A DNA stretch of 6,231 nt from a virus (IMGVR_UViG_2648501230_000014), one strand, 5' to 3'. Counted from the stretch's first letter, positions 1 through 6,231 are shown. Made by a program: numbers and translations. Notes: generated from the letters alone by a model not told the origin.

Positions 1-1
1 A

Positions 2-76
2 CAGACCAACCTGACGCTGAAAGAGGAAAGCTACGGCGACTGGCTGCCAAAATGTGACGACCCTGCAACAACCTGA
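2..76 (+). CDS. Probable 3' end of an upstream gene (partial, product unknown)
   Basis: Frame 2 is open from the window edge to TGA at 74-76 and uses common enterobacterial codons (CTG, GAA, GGC, GAC, AAA); frame 1 is full of rare codons (AGA, GGA, CTA, CGG, CGA). The stop is followed 8 nt later by a canonical intrinsic terminator. Translation ...QTNLTLKEESYGDWLPKCDDPATT* is not recognised. Confidence 0.35.
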   Translation, partial: QTNLTLKEESYGDWLPKCDDPATT

Positions 77-83
77 CCCACCT

Positions 84-109
84 GACCGGCATCTGCCGGT
101 CTTTTTTTT
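84..109 (+). terminator. Rho-independent terminator
   Basis: Perfect 7-bp stem GACCGGC (84-90) / GCCGGTC (95-101), 4-nt loop ATCT, followed by T8 (102-109). Confidence 0.6.
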
Positions 110-126
110 ATCCCGACCTCCCCCGA

Positions 127-250
127 AGGTGAACAATCCACTGTTCACCCTTCACCGTATATTCACCCGTTATCACACTGAAATTAAAAGAGAAAAACGA
201 AAGGTGAACAGTGTGAACAATCAAATCAAAAAAAACTTTTTTCTTCCTGA
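127..250. repeat. Tandem repeat unit 1 of an iteron-like array (GTTCACC/GGTGAAC heptamer cluster)
   Basis: GGTGAACA 128-135, TGTTCACC 142-149, TTCACC 151-156, TTCACCC 162-168, GGTGAACA 203-210, GTGAACA 213-219, then an A8-C-T6 tract. About 83% identical to unit 2 by hand alignment, with the heptamer blocks fully conserved. Confidence 0.6.
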
Positions 251-306
251 GTGATTTCAGTGCGGAGGATTAATCACCGGTATGAGTCACACCGGCAGAA
301 TGCCGG

Positions 307-430
307 AGGTGAAGAATCGAATGTTCACCCTTCACCCATTATTCACCACCTATCATACTGAAATAAAAGGAGAAAAAAGAAAGGTGAACAGTGTGAACAG
401 TTCTTTCGAAAAAAAATTTTTTCCTGTACG
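307..430. repeat. Tandem repeat unit 2 of the iteron-like array
   Basis: GGTGAAG 308-314, TGTTCACC 322-329, TTCACCC 331-337, TTCACCA 342-348, GGTGAACA 383-390, GTGAACAG 393-399, then an A8-T6 tract. Preceded by a CCGGC-AGAAT-GCCGG hairpin (292-306) that mirrors the CCGGC-ATCT-GCCGG hairpin before unit 1. Confidence 0.6.
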
Positions 431-710
431 ATATAGCATCAATCCAAGTAAAAATGCGCTTTCATTTCACATTAACTTACAGCCATTGGTATACGATTAG
501 GTATACGCACAAAAACTGAATTAAACAAAATCATTAAAAATCAAAGCAATACAATATTTATTCAAACTCCGCCAGCCCAATCATGATTGGACGGTGTAAG
601 GACAACACCAACAAAAACAGGAAGTTAGCAGTCTCAGCAGGACACCGACCAGACGGTGAGGAGACAAAAAAGGATACGCAAAGGAGCCGCGGCTCTCAAG
701 TGTGAAAGAA

Positions 711-736
711 GCCCGCAAATTGCGGGCTTTTTTATT
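711..736 (+). terminator. Rho-independent terminator
   Basis: GCCCGCAA-A-TTGCGGGC (8-bp GC-rich stem, 711-727) followed by TTTTTTATT. Sits immediately upstream of the 789 ORF, insulating it from upstream transcription. Confidence 0.7.
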
Positions 737-788
737 GATCAGTCAACAATAAACAGTAACCGAATGAGAATTTAATAAGGATATTCAT

Positions 789-1820
789 ATGGAAGCTACT
801 GTGGATTCGATTGATTTTCTGATCCGTAGTGAAGATGATTTTCTAAACTTTCTGGAAGAAATGAAAGCCCGAGAGGGGCTTGATTCTAAAGAGTTTATTT
901 TCCCTAACGTAAAGTTTGCAGGCTGGCCATCCTTAGACATAAATGTAAAAGGAGAGCGGTATCATTCATCAATTACATCAGCAATGTTGTTTGGTATGTC
1001 AATGCTCAACGAGGAGATACAGCGGGCGTTTGCAACCATACGATACGGATCGCAGAATCTTCAACGCTTGACTAATGAAGACAAGCAACGACTTGATATA
1101 AATTTTAAAATTAGCGAAGGTTCTAGTGATGCGGAAGGCACCACTGACAAGATCATCAACGCAGTAACTGATTTTTTGCGAGATACTATGTCTGGACTGA
1201 ACGGCTGGCAGAAAATGCTTGTTATAATCACAATGGTTGGCGCGGCCAGCACATGTGGTTATCACTACATTTCAGAAAATGCCGTAACAGAAAGACATGC
1301 AACTGATCGGCAGGTTGAAATTGCAAAAACCACATCCGATGGCATAAACAAAGCCATAGAAGCAACATTAGATTATAAAATCTATGGGAAATCAGCGATT
1401 AGCGATAAAGTTACTAGTCACGGACAAGCAGGTAAAAGTGCTTTAGTGAAGCAATTAGCTGCTGATCCTACTGTCGAAACCGTGACTTTAGGAAATGAGA
1501 AACTAACACGACAAGACCTAAATACCTACAACAGCCGACAATCTGTAGATAGAGAACGTAAAGAACGAACTGATATATTTTCCATCAAAGGTGTAACCAG
1601 AACAGGGCCAACAAATCAGGATATTAATATTAACGTTGTTAGGGTCTCTAATGACGAATGCTTCACAATCAAAGCTTCAGCTGATGTTATCACCCAAGAT
1701 GAGTTGACAGCTATTGTTGACGCTTTGTCAAACAACTCTCATATTAAAATCAGTTACTTAGAGGTAATTGAAAAGGGTGCTGTTTCTATAGGTCAGTTCA
1801 ACACTATTGTTTCAGAATAA
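789..1820 (+). CDS. Hypothetical protein (343 aa), first gene of a cargo operon; possible single-pass membrane protein
   Basis: Long ORF starting at the first ATG after an in-frame stop; AAGGA RBS at 777-781 with 7-nt spacer. Central hydrophobic stretch WQKMLVIITMVGAASTCGYHYI (residues 140-161). No catalytic motif I can assign. AT-rich relative to the tail genes. Confidence 0.8.
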   Translation: MEATVDSIDFLIRSEDDFLNFLEEMKAREGLDSKEFIFPNVKFAGWPSLDINVKGERYHSSITSAMLFGMSMLNEEIQRAFATIRYGSQNLQRLTNEDKQRLDINFKISEGSSDAEGTTDKIINAVTDFLRDTMSGLNGWQKMLVIITMVGAASTCGYHYISENAVTERHATDRQVEIAKTTSDGINKAIEATLDYKIYGKSAISDKVTSHGQAGKSALVKQLAADPTVETVTLGNEKLTRQDLNTYNSRQSVDRERKERTDIFSIKGVTRTGPTNQDININVVRVSNDECFTIKASADVITQDELTAIVDALSNNSHIKISYLEVIEKGAVSIGQFNTIVSE

Positions 1821-1871
1821 TCACTTAACCCCATTTATGTCGGTTGAGGTTATAAGTCACGGAGACCAGAT

Positions 1872-2216
1872 ATGTCCTTAAAGTATGCACATGAAAAATT
1901 TCATACTGCAGTACTTACTCTTGCGGGCCATGGAAGTATTCAAGAACGCTTGATTAATTCGTATGTTTTTAGCCTTGGGCATCTTAAAACAGCCGATGAT
2001 ATTCCAAATGCCTTACAAAGCAGGTTCGATGAATTATGTAAGGAACTGACTAAGTTTGATGCCACTGGCGATGAGGGGCGAGTTCAAGCAACAGTATCAA
2101 AACTTAACGATTTCGAGATCAATAAACTGATCGAAGATATTGTCAGTCTTAACGATGATATTTGCATGAAATTGGCTCTGACGGATGAGACTTACCAAGA
2201 CATACACCAAAGTTAA
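1872..2216 (+). CDS. Hypothetical protein (114 aa), second gene of the cargo operon
   Basis: GGAGA RBS at 1861-1865 with 6-nt spacer before ATG 1872. Lies 51 bp downstream of the 343-aa ORF on the same strand, followed by a hairpin at 2244-2266. Acidic, predicted helical, no recognisable motif. Confidence 0.75.
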   Translation: MSLKYAHEKFHTAVLTLAGHGSIQERLINSYVFSLGHLKTADDIPNALQSRFDELCKELTKFDATGDEGRVQATVSKLNDFEINKLIEDIVSLNDDICMKLALTDETYQDIHQS

Positions 2217-2243
2217 TTGATTAAATTCAAAAAGTTAACGTTC

Positions 2244-2266
2244 AACCAGCCAGTTTTTGGCTGGTT
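2244..2266. terminator. Probable bidirectional terminator hairpin between convergent genes
   Basis: AACCAGCC (2244-2251) / GGCTGGTT (2259-2266), 8-bp stem with 7-nt loop AGTTTTT, T-rich flank. Positioned between the 3' ends of the 1872..2216 (+) and 2301..2513 (-) genes. Confidence 0.45.
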
Positions 2267-2300
2267 TATTGTCTTATAATATTCTTGCTCGAATGATGCA

Positions 2301-2513
2301 CTATTTATGATGTAATCCGGACATCAGTTCATGGACAAGATTATCTCTTTCATTGTGTTGCAACCGTAAATGCATAGCAAAAAGGTGAGCACTATCCTCA
2401 TTCCTCTTCAAGCCATGCTGTTCAAGATACCCGAAAAAACGGCTTCTCTTATCCGCTATTTCCTGAGTCTGACGTGCAACATTTACCAAATTTTCTAGCG
2501 TTTTTCTTGGCAT
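2301..2513 (-). CDS. Hypothetical small protein (70 aa)
   Basis: Strong AGGAGG Shine-Dalgarno (complement of 2522-2527) 8 nt upstream of ATG (complement of 2511-2513). Basic, predicted helical. Lies downstream of the invertase on the same strand, where e14 of K-12 carries mcrA. Confidence 0.65.
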   Translation of the reverse strand: MPRKTLENLVNVARQTQEIADKRSRFFGYLEQHGLKRNEDSAHLFAMHLRLQHNERDNLVHELMSGLHHK

Positions 2514-2711
2514 ACTATTTCCTCCTGAAATTGTTGTAATTCACTAGGATATTCATTTTAATTTGTATCATTTAGTACCAAAACCGCTATCAATTAACAA
2601 AGCCATCGTTGTGGTTTACCTTGCAGCCGTTTTTTGTCATTGACTCTATGTGAAAATAATGAATCATCATGAGATTGGCTCACACGTTCTTGAATTCGAC
2701 GAGCTGTGTCT

Positions 2712-3266
2712 TTATTTATCTCCTGCCGGAAACCTCTGATACAAAGTCGATACGCCAACATCATAGATAATCGCAACTTTCTGGCGCGGAACTCCTGATG
2801 CAATTAATCGTCCGGCTTGTGCCCATTGTTCTGGTGTAAGTTTGGGACGACGTCCACCAATTCGTCCCTGTGCGCGAGCAGCTTCCAGTCCAGCTTTTGT
2901 TCGTTCAACAATCAGTTCTCGTTCCATTTCAGCCAGGGCCCCCATCACATGAAAGAAAAAGCGCCCCATTGGGGTACTGGTATCAATTGAATCCGTCAGA
3001 CTACGAAAGTTGATGCCTCGTTCGCGCAACTCCTCCACCAGCACGACAAGATGCCGCATACTGCGCCCCAGTCGGTCCAGTTTCCAGACCACCAGCGTAT
3101 CGCCTGCCGATAATGTCCTGAGCAGTTTTTTCAGTCCCGGCCTTTCGGACTTTGTACCGCTTATCTTGTCTTCAAAAATCAGCTCGCATCCTGCACAGTT
3201 CAGCGCATTACGTTGTAGATCTGTGTTCTGGTCATTTGTTGACACACGTACATAGCCAATAAGCAT
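2712..3266 (-). CDS. pin: Site-specific DNA invertase, serine recombinase of the Pin/Gin/Cin/Hin family
   Basis: 184-aa product MLIGYVRVSTNDQNTDLQRN...WKLDRLGRS...GINFRSLTDSIDTS.PMGRFFFHVMGALAEMERELI.ERT is an unmistakable match to Gin/Pin invertases (catalytic Ser in YVRVSTNDQ, C-terminal HTH). Start set at the ATG (3266..3264) preceded by GGGAGA, not at the longer ORF-track start at 3302. Stop TAA at 2714..2712. Confidence 0.93.
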   Translation of the reverse strand: MLIGYVRVSTNDQNTDLQRNALNCAGCELIFEDKISGTKSERPGLKKLLRTLSAGDTLVVWKLDRLGRSMRHLVVLVEELRERGINFRSLTDSIDTSTPMGRFFFHVMGALAEMERELIVERTKAGLEAARAQGRIGGRRPKLTPEQWAQAGRLIASGVPRQKVAIIYDVGVSTLYQRFPAGDK

Positions 3267-3292
3267 GGTAGATCTCCCTGACAAAAGCAGGA

Positions 3293-3805
3293 ATGATGCC
3301 ATTTGCTCGTTATTTCTGCATTTTCATAAACGTTGGTTTGGGAGAAGGTTCGGCATTACCCGTTGGTGTGCCTGTTCCGTGGCCTTCCGCCACTCCGCCA
3401 ACGGGGTGGCTAAAATGTAACGGAGCAGTATTTTCTTCTGAAAAGTACCCAAATCTGGCAAAGGCTTACCCAACATTAAAATTACCAGATTTACGCGGTG
3501 AATTTATTCGTGGCTGGGATGATGGGCGCGGGATTGACTCTGGTCGTAACTTATTATCTGCACAGAATGATGCAATTCAGAATATTGTTGGTTCTTTTGG
3601 GCGTACCCAGCTTTTTAGAGACGTACTTAGTTCAGGGCCATTTAGTCAACATGGGCAAGTATTATCTACAGGTCTAAAGGAAGCCGAAATTATTGAGGGT
3701 TATGGCGCTTATAACTGGACATTCGACGCATCTCGCTCAGTTCGCACAGCATCTGAAACCCGCTCCCGTAACATCGCCTTTAATTATATTGTGAGGGCTG
3801 CATGA
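3293..3805 (+). CDS. Alternative tail-fibre C-terminal variable cassette (promoterless, OFF orientation; stfE-like fragment)
   Basis: Translation contains the tail-fibre C-terminal signature ...GWLKCNGAVFSSEKYPNLAKAYPTLKLPDLRGEFIRGWDDGRGIDSGRNLLSAQNDAIQNI... The reading frame passes through the crossover site (NVGLGEG). The functional part begins at about 3335; the ATG at 3293 is probably fortuitous. Confidence 0.7.
   Translation: MMPFARYFCIFINVGLGEGSALPVGVPVPWPSATPPTGWLKCNGAVFSSEKYPNLAKAYPTLKLPDLRGEFIRGWDDGRGIDSGRNLLSAQNDAIQNIVGSFGRTQLFRDVLSSGPFSQHGQVLSTGLKEAEIIEGYGAYNWTFDASRSVRTASETRSRNIAFNYIVRAA
3321..3346. promoter_or_regulatory. Invertase crossover site (pix/gix/hix-like), pin-proximal
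   Basis: TTTTCATAAACGTTGGTTTGGGAGAA; reverse complement TTCTCCCAAACC-AA-CGTTTATGAAAA follows the 12-2-12 hix/gix layout (compare hixL TTCTTGAAAACC-AA-GGTTTTTGATAA as recalled). It is an inverted repeat of the site at 5266-5291. Confidence 0.8.
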
Positions 3806-4407
3806 TAAGTAAAGCTGTATTAAATAATGAACTCATCGCCACAAAGGCCGGAGACATTACCGTTTATAATTATGATGGTGAAACACGGGAATATATTTCC
3901 ACATCAACTGAATATCTTGCTGTGGGTGTTGGTATCCCGGCATGTTCCTGTTTAGATGCTCCTGGCTCATATAAAGCTGGTTATGCAATTTGCCGTTCTG
4001 CAGATTTTAACTCATGGGAATATGTGCCAGACCATCGCGGTGAAATCGTCTATAGCACCGAAACAGGAGAATCAAAAGAAATCACAGTTCCGGGTGATTA
4101 CCCTGAAAATACAACCACTATCGCCCCGTTAACGTCATACGATAAATGGGATGGTGAGAAATGGGTGACCGATACTGAGGCACAGCATAACGCCGCAGTA
4201 GACGCGGCAGAAGTACGGCGCCAGTCACTGATTGATGCTGCTATGGCTTCCATTAGTCTGATTCAGCTGAAATTGCAGGCCGGGCGGAAGCTGACGCAGG
4301 CAGAAACAACCCGGCTTAACGCTGTGCTGGATTACATTGACGCGGTGACTGCAACAGATACCAGCACCGCGCCGGATGTCATCTGGCCTGAACTACCGGA
4401 GGCGTAG
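3802..4407 (+). CDS. tfa: Tail-fibre assembly protein (Tfa family), alternative copy
   Basis: 201 aa; start overlaps the upstream stop (ATGA). Lambda-Tfa-like motifs: VPDHRGEIVY, YDKWDGEKWVTDTEAQ, C-terminal VTATDTSTAPDVIWPELPEA. Confidence 0.85.
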   Translation: MISKAVLNNELIATKAGDITVYNYDGETREYISTSTEYLAVGVGIPACSCLDAPGSYKAGYAICRSADFNSWEYVPDHRGEIVYSTETGESKEITVPGDYPENTTTIAPLTSYDKWDGEKWVTDTEAQHNAAVDAAEVRRQSLIDAAMASISLIQLKLQAGRKLTQAETTRLNAVLDYIDAVTATDTSTAPDVIWPELPEA

Positions 4408-4822
4408 GCCATTCAATATCTGGAGCACTGGAGGTATCAACCAGTTCCAGTGCGTCCAGATAATCCAGCCATAAATTATATTGTTCCAGCTCGTAACCTT
4501 TCAGACGACCAATAGCAGCTTTGCCAGGCCACTGATGGGTATTGATGTAGGTATTGACTTCTGAAACCAAAGATATCTTTTTCATTTCAGCCGCCAGCAT
4601 CTCATCCTCTTTTGAAGGCGGCGGGGAATTAATCCATATTGGCCGTCCTGAACTGTCAGCGCCAATTTCTTTCCCTTCTGGATGCAGCCCAAGAAATTGC
4701 TCATATGTTTCTCTGGTAATTTCAATAACATCATCAGGAAGCGTTCCCGCATCCTCATATTCTGGAAACAATTCTTGCAGATAAAAACTTTTACTTGCGG
4801 GTGAAAAGAATACTGAGTTCAT
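4379..4822 (-). CDS. tfa: Tail-fibre assembly protein (Tfa family), currently expressed copy
   Basis: 147 aa; ATG (4822..4820) lies 2 nt after the tail-fibre stop. C-terminal Tfa signature LWLDYLDALELVDTSSAPDIEWPTPP. Its 3' end overlaps the convergent tfa by 29 bp. Confidence 0.85.
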   Translation of the reverse strand: MNSVFFSPASKSFYLQELFPEYEDAGTLPDDVIEITRETYEQFLGLHPEGKEIGADSSGRPIWINSPPPSKEDEMLAAEMKKISLVSEVNTYINTHQWPGKAAIGRLKGYELEQYNLWLDYLDALELVDTSSAPDIEWPTPPVVQAR

Positions 4823-4824
4823 TC

Positions 4825-5568
4825 TTACCGTCCAATGATTAACGCTGAGACGCTGGTATCTGAAGGAAAGGCTGCATTCAGTGGTTTGTCGACTTTGAAC
4901 ACAATCGTATTATTCCCCCTGACAGCGGCAAAAGAACAAACCGCCGTCGCGTATGAACCTGTAATATTACTGGATACACCACCATAAGCTGTTGTTGATA
5001 CCAGAGGGATAACGCCCAGCACCTTATTAGGAAATACAAAGGGCAATGTGGCTGTGGCAATATAAGACTTATTAGAACCTGTAATGGCATAAGCATTATC
5101 AGTCATTCCATTCATCGCCACTGGACCGCTTATACTTACAGTAACCATCTGAATGATTAGCCCGTCAGGTTGACGAATCACAAAATTTCCATTGCCACCA
5201 GTAACCGTCCAGAAAGACATATCAGGGATTTGGTTTTCCCCGTTGCCCACATTTCGTTTTGCCGCTTCTCCCAAACCAAGGTTTTCGAGAGCCGTTTTCA
5301 CCGTGCCATCAGATTTGATATCGCCAAACGGATTCTTGCGGCTTAACAGCAGCGCACGAAGCGCGGTAAGCAGCTGGTCATGCCGCCCCTTCTCCAGGCT
5401 GGCACCGGATGCCTCCACCACGCTGCAGAGTTCTTCCTGCAACATGTCAAAGTAGTCATCATCCAGATCGGTGGCAGGTGTGCCGGTCTGGGGGTTACCA
5501 CGGGTAAAACCGTTCTTACCCGCGCCGAACTTATCCTTCTGCGCGGTTTTCGTGTCTATACGATGCAT
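4825..5568 (-). CDS. Tail fibre protein (constant N-terminal part outside, variable C-terminal part inside the invertible segment; stfP-like)
   Basis: 247 aa; GGAG RBS 6 nt upstream of ATG (5568..5566). The crossover site lies in-frame at residues ~93-101 ([10 protein letters not shown]). Follows the gpI-like gene with a 3-nt gap. Confidence 0.85.
5266..5291. promoter_or_regulatory. Invertase crossover site (pix/gix/hix-like), inside the tail-fibre gene
   Basis: TTCTCCCAAACC-AA-GGTTTTCGAGAG. Matches the pin-proximal site in inverted orientation at 18 of 20 positions around the AA/TT core. Confidence 0.8.
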
Positions 5569-5571
5569 GGA

Positions 5572-6229
<658 letters not shown>

Positions 6230-6231
6230 CA

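Follow-up and report, generated by a model that had tools for sequence, protein, structure and literature searches.

What does an abrupt fall in GC content mean at the end of a prophage? The question is raised by a 6,231-nucleotide stretch of viral DNA (IMGVR_UViG_2648501230_000014; the window, by which we mean the whole stretch that was analysed), in which an AT-rich block with a repeat array and three open reading frames (ORFs) precedes an invertase gene and a tail-fibre module. A preliminary description had considered this block, from about position 110 to about 2700, consistent with horizontally acquired cargo inserted at a prophage end. We conclude instead that the block is very likely composite, and that the window spans the junction of a P4-like satellite and an e14/Mu-tail-like prophage remnant that lie in tandem at ssrA, the gene for transfer-messenger RNA (tmRNA). 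In the left fifth of the block the AT-richness would then be that of the satellite's non-coding DNA for replication and attachment, and in the right three-quarters that of a foreign cargo. This reading draws on the observed composition, sequence identities, homology breakpoints, alternative cargos in relatives and the recurrence of the arrangement in an independent genome. All the component kinds, including the satellite's replication region, are known, and a mosaic of this sort is ordinary in E. coli; what is new is an uncharacterised cargo at a hotspot-type position.

The compositional step itself lies far beyond chance. GC content is 0.536 in 1-110, 0.389 in 111-2711 and 0.490 in 2712-6231, with 0.449 for the entire window. 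In a likelihood-ratio search for change points, with significance judged against 200 block shuffles, the strongest falls after 2771 (log-likelihood ratio (LLR) 29.0 vs a shuffle maximum of 8.8, n=200; GC 0.395 on its left and 0.492 on its right) and the second, in the left part, after 157 (LLR 8.6, p ~0.005; 0.554 and 0.386). Within 158-2771 the same search found no further significant GC split (p = 0.56). Sliding-window calculation and these significant change points exclude uniform GC across the window, and bear out both the AT-richness of the block and the higher GC of the first ~110 bp; the borders originally placed near 110 and 2700 prove correct to ~50-60 bases. What did not survive is the assignment of the whole block to one element.

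The left end of the block belongs with phage P4. Positions 1-422 are 97.9% identical to P4 (X51522, 4291-4711) and align to its annotated alpha end, alpha terminator (t-alpha), cis replication region (crr), two 120-bp direct repeats and ten 'ori type 1 repeats'. The 3' end of a P4-family alpha (primase-helicase) gene occupies 2-76 on the plus strand (last 25 codons, stop TGA at 74-76; GC 0.539), and the annotated primase coding sequence in H26/L002 stops at the base aligned to window 76. By this alignment, bases 1-76 are the end of a satellite alpha primase gene and neither host nor prophage DNA; in a close relative the gene as a whole is 61% GC. It is followed on the same strand by the Rho-independent terminator t-alpha at 84-109, a 7-bp stem (84-101) and then a T run, aligned with the 'talpha' of X51522. 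The crr lies at 123-423 and contains two direct repeats of 121 nt (123-243 and 303-423), which are 83% identical at a spacing of 180; each has five type-1 iterons (TGTTCACC and one-mismatch variants) in both orientations. Ten such iterons stand at the P4-annotated positions in 128-399, and there are 15 matches window-wide vs 5.5 expected.

The crr of P4 binds the alpha protein and is needed in cis for replication. As judged from sequence, 123-423 is a crr with predicted alpha-binding iterons and an origin-like role. It shares with P4 the order alpha stop, t-alpha, two 120-bp repeats with 60 bp between them, and in each five type-1 iterons; unlike P4, the window sequence diverges past 422 and its satellite uses ssrA rather than the P4 attachment (att) site, and homology to P4 ends at 422 because the att site of P4 is a different one. 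The repeat array that had been counted as cargo is the P4 crr, aligned to the annotated P4 record. Beyond it, 424-560 is non-coding, with GC ~0.33, and would be the right att arm of an ssrA-integrating P4-like satellite; it is collinear with strain S1-ESP-02-A (L002). Indeed all of 1-737 is collinear at 97.3% with L002, which carries a P4-like satellite at ssrA without a downstream prophage, in the order ssrA-int-(ABC-three-component genes)-psu-delta-sid...alpha-crr-att, then glaH. The sequence from the repeats to about 560 had likewise been assigned to the prophage as cargo; 77-560 form instead the right end, non-coding, of a P4-like satellite. The left element would thus consist of the alpha end, t-alpha, crr and an AT-rich att arm that ends in a degenerate ssrA 3' end. 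At its left junction the satellite of L002 brings its own ssrA trailer and terminator (700-800), and its psu-int hotspot holds a cassette of ABC-three-component type (2085-4800) that, at 30% GC, is more AT-rich than the cargo of the window.

The point at which the two elements meet is marked by a degenerate copy of the ssrA 3' end at 560-579 on the plus strand (TTCAAACTCCGCCAGCCCA vs the genuine TTCAACTCCCGCCAGCTCCACCA), which differs from the last 23 nt of ssrA by 1 mismatch plus indels. Strain PEC122 (L003) has an intact ssrA whose last base aligns to window 579, and the sequence from window 580 onward directly adjoins it; in L002 the satellite is located between ssrA and a degenerate ssrA copy. 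On these alignments 560-579 is the att core left at the satellite's right end, and the displaced ssrA end is apparently decaying. Its 574-579 portion is three bases shorter than the near-identical junction at ~12578-12585 of L002 (CCCAATC vs CCCACCAATC).

The next segment, 580-737 on the plus strand, is an ssrA trailer with a terminator hairpin at 705-733 (inverted repeat 705-718/720-733) and lies directly 3' of intact ssrA in L003. The ssrA-integrating phage LLS carries 561-736 at 87% identity beside its annotated attP and a 'tmRNA pseudogene', and phages that use ssrA therefore bring their own copy of the trailer. Positions 561-737 are accordingly an ssrA 3'-end remnant with trailer and terminator, and not cargo as had been supposed. 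A retron or other non-coding RNA at 560-740, considered for the structured A-rich stretch and terminator there, was ruled out, the stretch being the ssrA trailer that directly follows intact ssrA. An Rfam scan of the whole window (E <= 1) gave no match at the gathering score, and 581-737 is not a known RNA; the sub-threshold matches to an isrC fragment, the Trp leader and Atu_L1 correspond to a truncated insertion sequence (IS) end, a terminator and chance.

Islands in tandem at the tmRNA gene, such as CP4-57 of K-12, have reportedly been described by K. Williams. The window resembles them in that the att core is the ssrA 3' end and successive elements leave displaced degenerate ends; it differs in its pairing of a P4-like satellite with an e14-like remnant, which we saw in one other assembly only. 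In strain PS1Thumoskin9 (L001) a lambdoid prophage, not a satellite, stands ahead of the same prophage remnant at ssrA, and elements therefore stack at this site. We infer that in the window the prophage came to ssrA first and the P4-like satellite later. The same stacking pattern is seen in three Cronobacter loci (L011-L013, 6001-7023), where an 82%-identical homologue of the largest cargo ORF is fixed and the element ahead of it varies between a CbtA/CbeA island and a P2/186-like prophage.

To the right of the trailer, the original reading holds. Positions 738-2686 form a swappable block at the pin-proximal end of the prophage (1.95 kb, three genes, GC ~0.39), where pin is the invertase gene. 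In comparisons with related prophages the left break in homology lies at 665-737 and the right one at 2683 (L010, fS25a), 2687 (L009, ES5) or 2710 (e14 of K-12), that is, 2-28 bases from the pin stop codon at 2712. Unrelated genes occupy the same place in these relatives, which lack this cargo: a KAP P-loop NTPase in fS25a, a GIY-YIG protein in ES5 and the McrA restriction enzyme in K-12 e14. The interval from the ssrA trailer or att site to the stop codon of pin is thus filled by four different cargos. Among 5426 complete E. coli genomes, 738-2686 is present in 46, as a single copy in each and at >=99.6% identity. With its conserved flanks, its replacement in relatives and its rarity, this part of the AT-rich block, unlike 77-737, can be called horizontally acquired prophage-end cargo. 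The cargo would occupy a hotspot of recombination bordered by the ssrA trailer and the final bases of pin, and would be exchanged by recombination in these flanks. Related prophages hold very different genes there, for defence or lysogenic conversion and often AT-rich. The order of the right element would then be ssrA trailer and terminator, three-gene cargo, pin, invertible tail-fibre segment and a ymfQ gene cut by an IS3-family element.

The contrast with the tail module is less sharp than a two-part division implies. Although 2712-6231 is GC-richer as a whole, it is not uniform: a third significant change point at ~5337 (0.467 and 0.563) lies just outside the right inverted repeat of the invertible segment, with the variable, exchangeable part on one side and the constant fibre part and ymfQ on the other. 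GC-richness is confined to the latter two (GC ~0.57, GC at third codon positions (GC3) 0.62); the invertase and invertible fibre region are intermediate (GC 0.44-0.50, GC3 0.34-0.48). By gene, GC3 is 0.43 in pin, 0.34 in the alternative fibre end, 0.42 and 0.37 in the tail-fibre-assembly (tfa) genes, 0.48 in the expressed fibre gene and 0.62 in ymfQ, and 0.34-0.37 in the three cargo ORFs. Related prophages have a GC of 0.49-0.50 in pin, 0.47 in the invertible region and 0.57-0.58 in ymfQ and the baseplate genes.

Codon usage was measured with an index derived from 17 flanking chromosomal genes of related loci; these host genes average 0.663 (sd 0.055). On this index the cargo ORFs reach 0.52, 0.57 and 0.48, pin 0.55, the variable fibre parts 0.53-0.54, the tfa genes 0.59-0.62, the constant fibre part 0.67 and ymfQ 0.69. 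Pin and the variable fibre parts are nearly as atypical as the cargo, and codon usage is a gradient rather than a two-state step. The typical enterobacterial codon usage ascribed to the tail and invertase genes is therefore a property of ymfQ and the constant fibre part, but not of pin or the variable fibre parts. A codon adaptation index from a Sharp-Li table was uniformly low, did not separate cargo from tail genes and was set aside for the host-gene index.

Could 110-2700 nevertheless be a single horizontally acquired cargo island at the end of one prophage, with GC-rich host or prophage DNA on its left? The compositional homogeneity of the block speaks for such an island, since no significant split falls within it, but its two halves occur apart. 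Positions 1-737 are found without the ORFs beside the P4-like satellite of L002, 561-3528 are found without the repeats directly after ssrA in L003, and the two halves are joined in none of the complete E. coli genomes, though they are in one other assembly. The repeats, moreover, are the P4 crr and the leftmost GC-rich bases the P4 alpha gene, and we regard a single island as scarcely credible. The rarity of the junction also invites the suspicion that it is an assembly chimera, formed through collapse of the ~180-bp ssrA-trailer repeat (561-737) that follows both elements. That repeat does occur in both contexts, the exact junction is in 0 of the 5426 complete genomes, and strict pattern scans of viral and metagenome contigs did not find it. 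Yet an independent assembly (L107; GCA_977067085.1, 5.15-Mb contig) has the same arrangement at 99.7% identity over 1-3347. Its run of alpha, crr, att, cargo and pin therefore argues that the junction is not an assembly artefact, and other finished genomes hold tandem elements at ssrA, such as the lambdoid prophage ahead of the same remnant in L001. A chimera is accordingly very improbable.

A different objection grants the junction and explains the low GC of the cargo by functional constraint, through the amino-acid composition of small or membrane proteins or through H-NS-type silencing, rather than by recent foreign origin. Homologues of the largest cargo ORF measured in other genera are also ~40% GC (0.404 in L032 and 0.412 in L047), and GC at second codon positions is low in the three ORFs (0.28-0.375), so amino-acid composition does contribute. 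The equally low GC3 of the ORFs points instead to background composition, as do the intergenic spacers, which are lower again at 0.32-0.35. The block is also rare and nearly invariant, with other genes in its place in relatives. We consider constraint an improbable explanation of the low GC, if less so than the two alternatives above, and favor foreign origin of the cargo.

Is the position beside pin itself a recurrent site of exchange? Loci with Pin relatives were collected from other species (79, of which 73 had sufficient downstream sequence), and at 21 of the 73 the GC of the 2-kb stretch 3' of pin is >=5 points under that of pin. ORFs in the AT-rich loci encode HNH/McrA, Peptidase_M78 with DUF4411, reverse transcriptase with AAA_15 ATPase, STAND NTPase, N6 methylase (N6_Mtase) with a specificity (S) subunit, Panacea antitoxin, EAL protein and glycosyltransferase. 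Individual examples include a retron-like reverse transcriptase with an AAA_15/OLD-like ATPase in Salmonella enterica (L049, 7204-9766), a STAND NTPase in Klebsiella sp. (L078, 6317-8317) and a Peptidase_M78 and DUF4411 pair in Trabulsiella (L028, 7230-8881), all downstream of pin. Judged by the predicted products, the end of the prophage beside pin resembles a defence hotspot throughout Enterobacterales. Conserved flanks with varied genes downstream of pin mean that the site behaves like the hotspots of P2 and P4, of which the P4 hotspot of anti-phage systems is located between psu and int (Rousset et al. 2022, PMC9122126). As in those hotspots, one position with conserved flanks receives varying, often defence-related cassettes in related elements; unlike them, the site lies downstream of pin in an e14/Mu-tail-like prophage, and the P4 psu-int site falls outside the window.

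The closest known arrangement is e14 of K-12 (ymfQ-stfP-tfaP-tfaE-stfE-pinE-mcrA-attR). The window shares its gene order and, at 89-96% identity, its ymfQ, parts of the fibre module and pinE; in both, a short AT-rich cargo separates the stop codon of pin from the att site. In the window, however, three ORFs of 343, 114 and 70 codons (ORF343, ORF114 and ORF70) replace mcrA, the integration site is ssrA and not icd, and the prophage is a remnant in which an IS3-family element cuts ymfQ. Two further loci (L101 and L106, ~6392-9032) hold the same cargo with a truncated pin, homology ending at window 3183-3189, next to a different long tail-fibre and assembly gene. The cargo can therefore remain at ssrA while the adjoining phage module is replaced.

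Some observations weigh against this account of the block. The trailer segment 580-737 may be of phage-borne or host origin, being compatible with either. The region downstream of pin is AT-rich at just 29% of species loci, so that low GC there is frequent and no rule, and not every hotspot cargo is AT-rich: GC is 0.47 in the KAP NTPase block, with 0.43 in the GIY-YIG cargo and 0.35 in mcrA.

What does the cargo encode? ORF343 (789-1820, plus strand) is predicted to have an N-terminal alpha/beta domain, a central hydrophobic helix at residues ~139-160, long helices and a C-terminal OB-fold. It provides the sole family match among the cargo ORFs, to phrog_6191, whose function is uncharacterised in PHROGs; Pfam, NCBIfam and PADLOC 2023 models matched none of the three. 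Scans of 35 and 61 members of the ORF343 family found no consistent Pfam or PADLOC family, the 61 distant members giving only scattered single weak matches to PADLOC, and profile searches of the PDB gave no solved structure related by sequence below E = 0.03. Fold comparison of ORF343 yielded no full-length match, only matches to the OB-fold domain; SilF, YgiW and the B subunits of AB5 toxins are among the periplasmic OB proteins that this domain resembles. Modelled on its own, the N-terminal domain gave a poor structure (predicted local distance difference test score, pLDDT, 61.5). Literature on accessions of the family's proteins and on their carrier phages contained nothing on function. The family is nonetheless large: a profile search recovered, at 50% identity, no fewer than 839 clusters, almost all of them of 320-350 amino acids (aa), and close relatives are found in Enterobacterales only. 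In 60 of 61 members the most hydrophobic 19-residue stretch lies at position 120-170, with a median Kyte-Doolittle value of 1.67.

The positions of ORF343 homologues are more informative. In phi458, PhiR12 and a Pantoea prophage they share the strand of cI and lie directly 3' of it, ahead of N (L006, 5001-6047; L007, 4899-5924; L020, 5001-6029). Others are at prophage ends by tail-fibre genes or att sites (Enterobacter, Cronobacter and Xenorhabdus), two are directly downstream of pin (Citrobacter and Mangrovibacter) and one is within the tail module (Klebsiella oxytoca). These cI-adjacent, prophage-end and pin-adjacent contexts suggest that ORF343 is a putative lysogen-expressed accessory protein. 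In the three lambdoid phages and prophages the homologues have the same position and strand as rexA-rexB of lambda, after cI and before N. Unlike rexA-rexB, ORF343 is a single gene; the resemblance is of position only, and the sequence searches of the PDB and the fold comparison gave no similarity to RexA or RexB. A second ORF of 343 aa near the Cronobacter homologue is unrelated.

By analogy, we speculate that ORF343 is a membrane-anchored exclusion or defence protein, an assignment that we hold as tentative. Expressed in the lysogen from rexAB-type (after cI) and mcrA-type (after pin) positions, it would be a bitopic inner-membrane protein with its N-terminal domain in the cytoplasm and its C-terminal OB-fold in the periplasm, where the OB-fold might block genome entry of a superinfecting phage, or sense phage and kill the cell. 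Within this idea a block at genome entry is favoured over abortive infection. It is possible, though doubtful, that the family as a whole constitutes a new and widespread class of single-gene, lysogen-expressed exclusion or abortive-infection proteins of temperate phages. Several features of ORF343 tell against such a role. Its fold matches are generic OB-folds that include cytoplasmic single-stranded DNA binders, and with these structural models a nucleic-acid-sensing role is equally compatible. The predicted topology is ambiguous (flanking K+R 2.2 vs 2.3), the helix of the window's own ORF343 is just moderately hydrophobic (Kyte-Doolittle 1.41), and a crude scan found no consensus sigma-70 promoter upstream.

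The two smaller ORFs are orphans. ORF114 (1872-2216, plus strand) has six close homologues only and no family match, and is probably in an operon with ORF343. ORF70 (2301-2513, minus strand) has near-identical homologues only, on at least 1000 contigs, and is annotated as a hypothetical protein in E. coli records. Between these convergent genes lies a hairpin terminator (2244-2266) with a 10-bp stem and a T-rich tail. A role for either as a conserved partner of ORF343 was ruled out, since both have near-identical relatives only and are absent beside ORF343 homologues elsewhere.

The remainder of the window is the prophage remnant proper. On the minus strand, 2712-3266 encodes a serine invertase of 184 aa of the pinE type (Resolvase, 1.8e-51; HTH_7, 4e-13), annotated as pinE. 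It adjoins an invertible P segment of 1.96 kb (3328-5284), whose two ends are 20-nt inverted repeats (3328-3347 and 5265-5284) of 95% complementarity; the segment contains two alternative fibre C-termini and two tail-fibre-assembly genes with Collar, Caudo_TAP and Gp53-like_C domains. In L107 (6540-8496) the exact segment is inverted at 99.9% identity with both flanks collinear; as the segment is seen in both orientations, the switch is active now or was so recently. A serine recombinase, adjoining inverted repeats and both orientations are the marks of a tail-fibre switch of the Pin/Gin/Cin type, and all are present here. In e14, inversion of the P segment is reported to yield a chimeric StfE2 protein, which blocks phage T2 adsorption (2025, PMC12529663).

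The constant N-terminal part of the tail fibre (5285-5568) and ymfQ (5572-6135; Mu gp48-like, Phage_Mu_Gp48 1.1e-26) follow, both on the minus strand with GC 0.56-0.57. Homology to intact prophages stops at 6135. From 6136 to 6231, on the plus strand, comes the left end of an IS3-family element (orfA start at 6204, MNKKTKRTF), which has cut off the 5' end of ymfQ; it is on this IS end that Rfam placed its weak isrC match (6200-6231, E = 0.032, truncated where the window stops). L001 matches the window at 99.9% identity as far as 6231, and the coding sequence of its IS3-family transposase begins at the aligned base. With prophage homology stopping at 6135 and an IS3-family element after it, the prophage is a remnant of ~5.4 kb.

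A compositional step at a prophage end is routine, and the value of resolving this one is that it corrects the annotation; otherwise the crr iterons would be filed as cargo and a satellite gene taken for host flank. Stacked elements at ssrA, each of which leaves a degenerate att copy, are relevant to how prophage boundaries are delimited. The ORF343 family recurs in two classic lysogen-expressed positions and is thus a cheap candidate for a defence screen. More broadly, the putative hotspot downstream of pin in e14/Mu-tail-like prophages, with its predicted restriction, retron-like, STAND and toxin-antitoxin genes, could be mined in the same way as the hotspots of P2 and P4.

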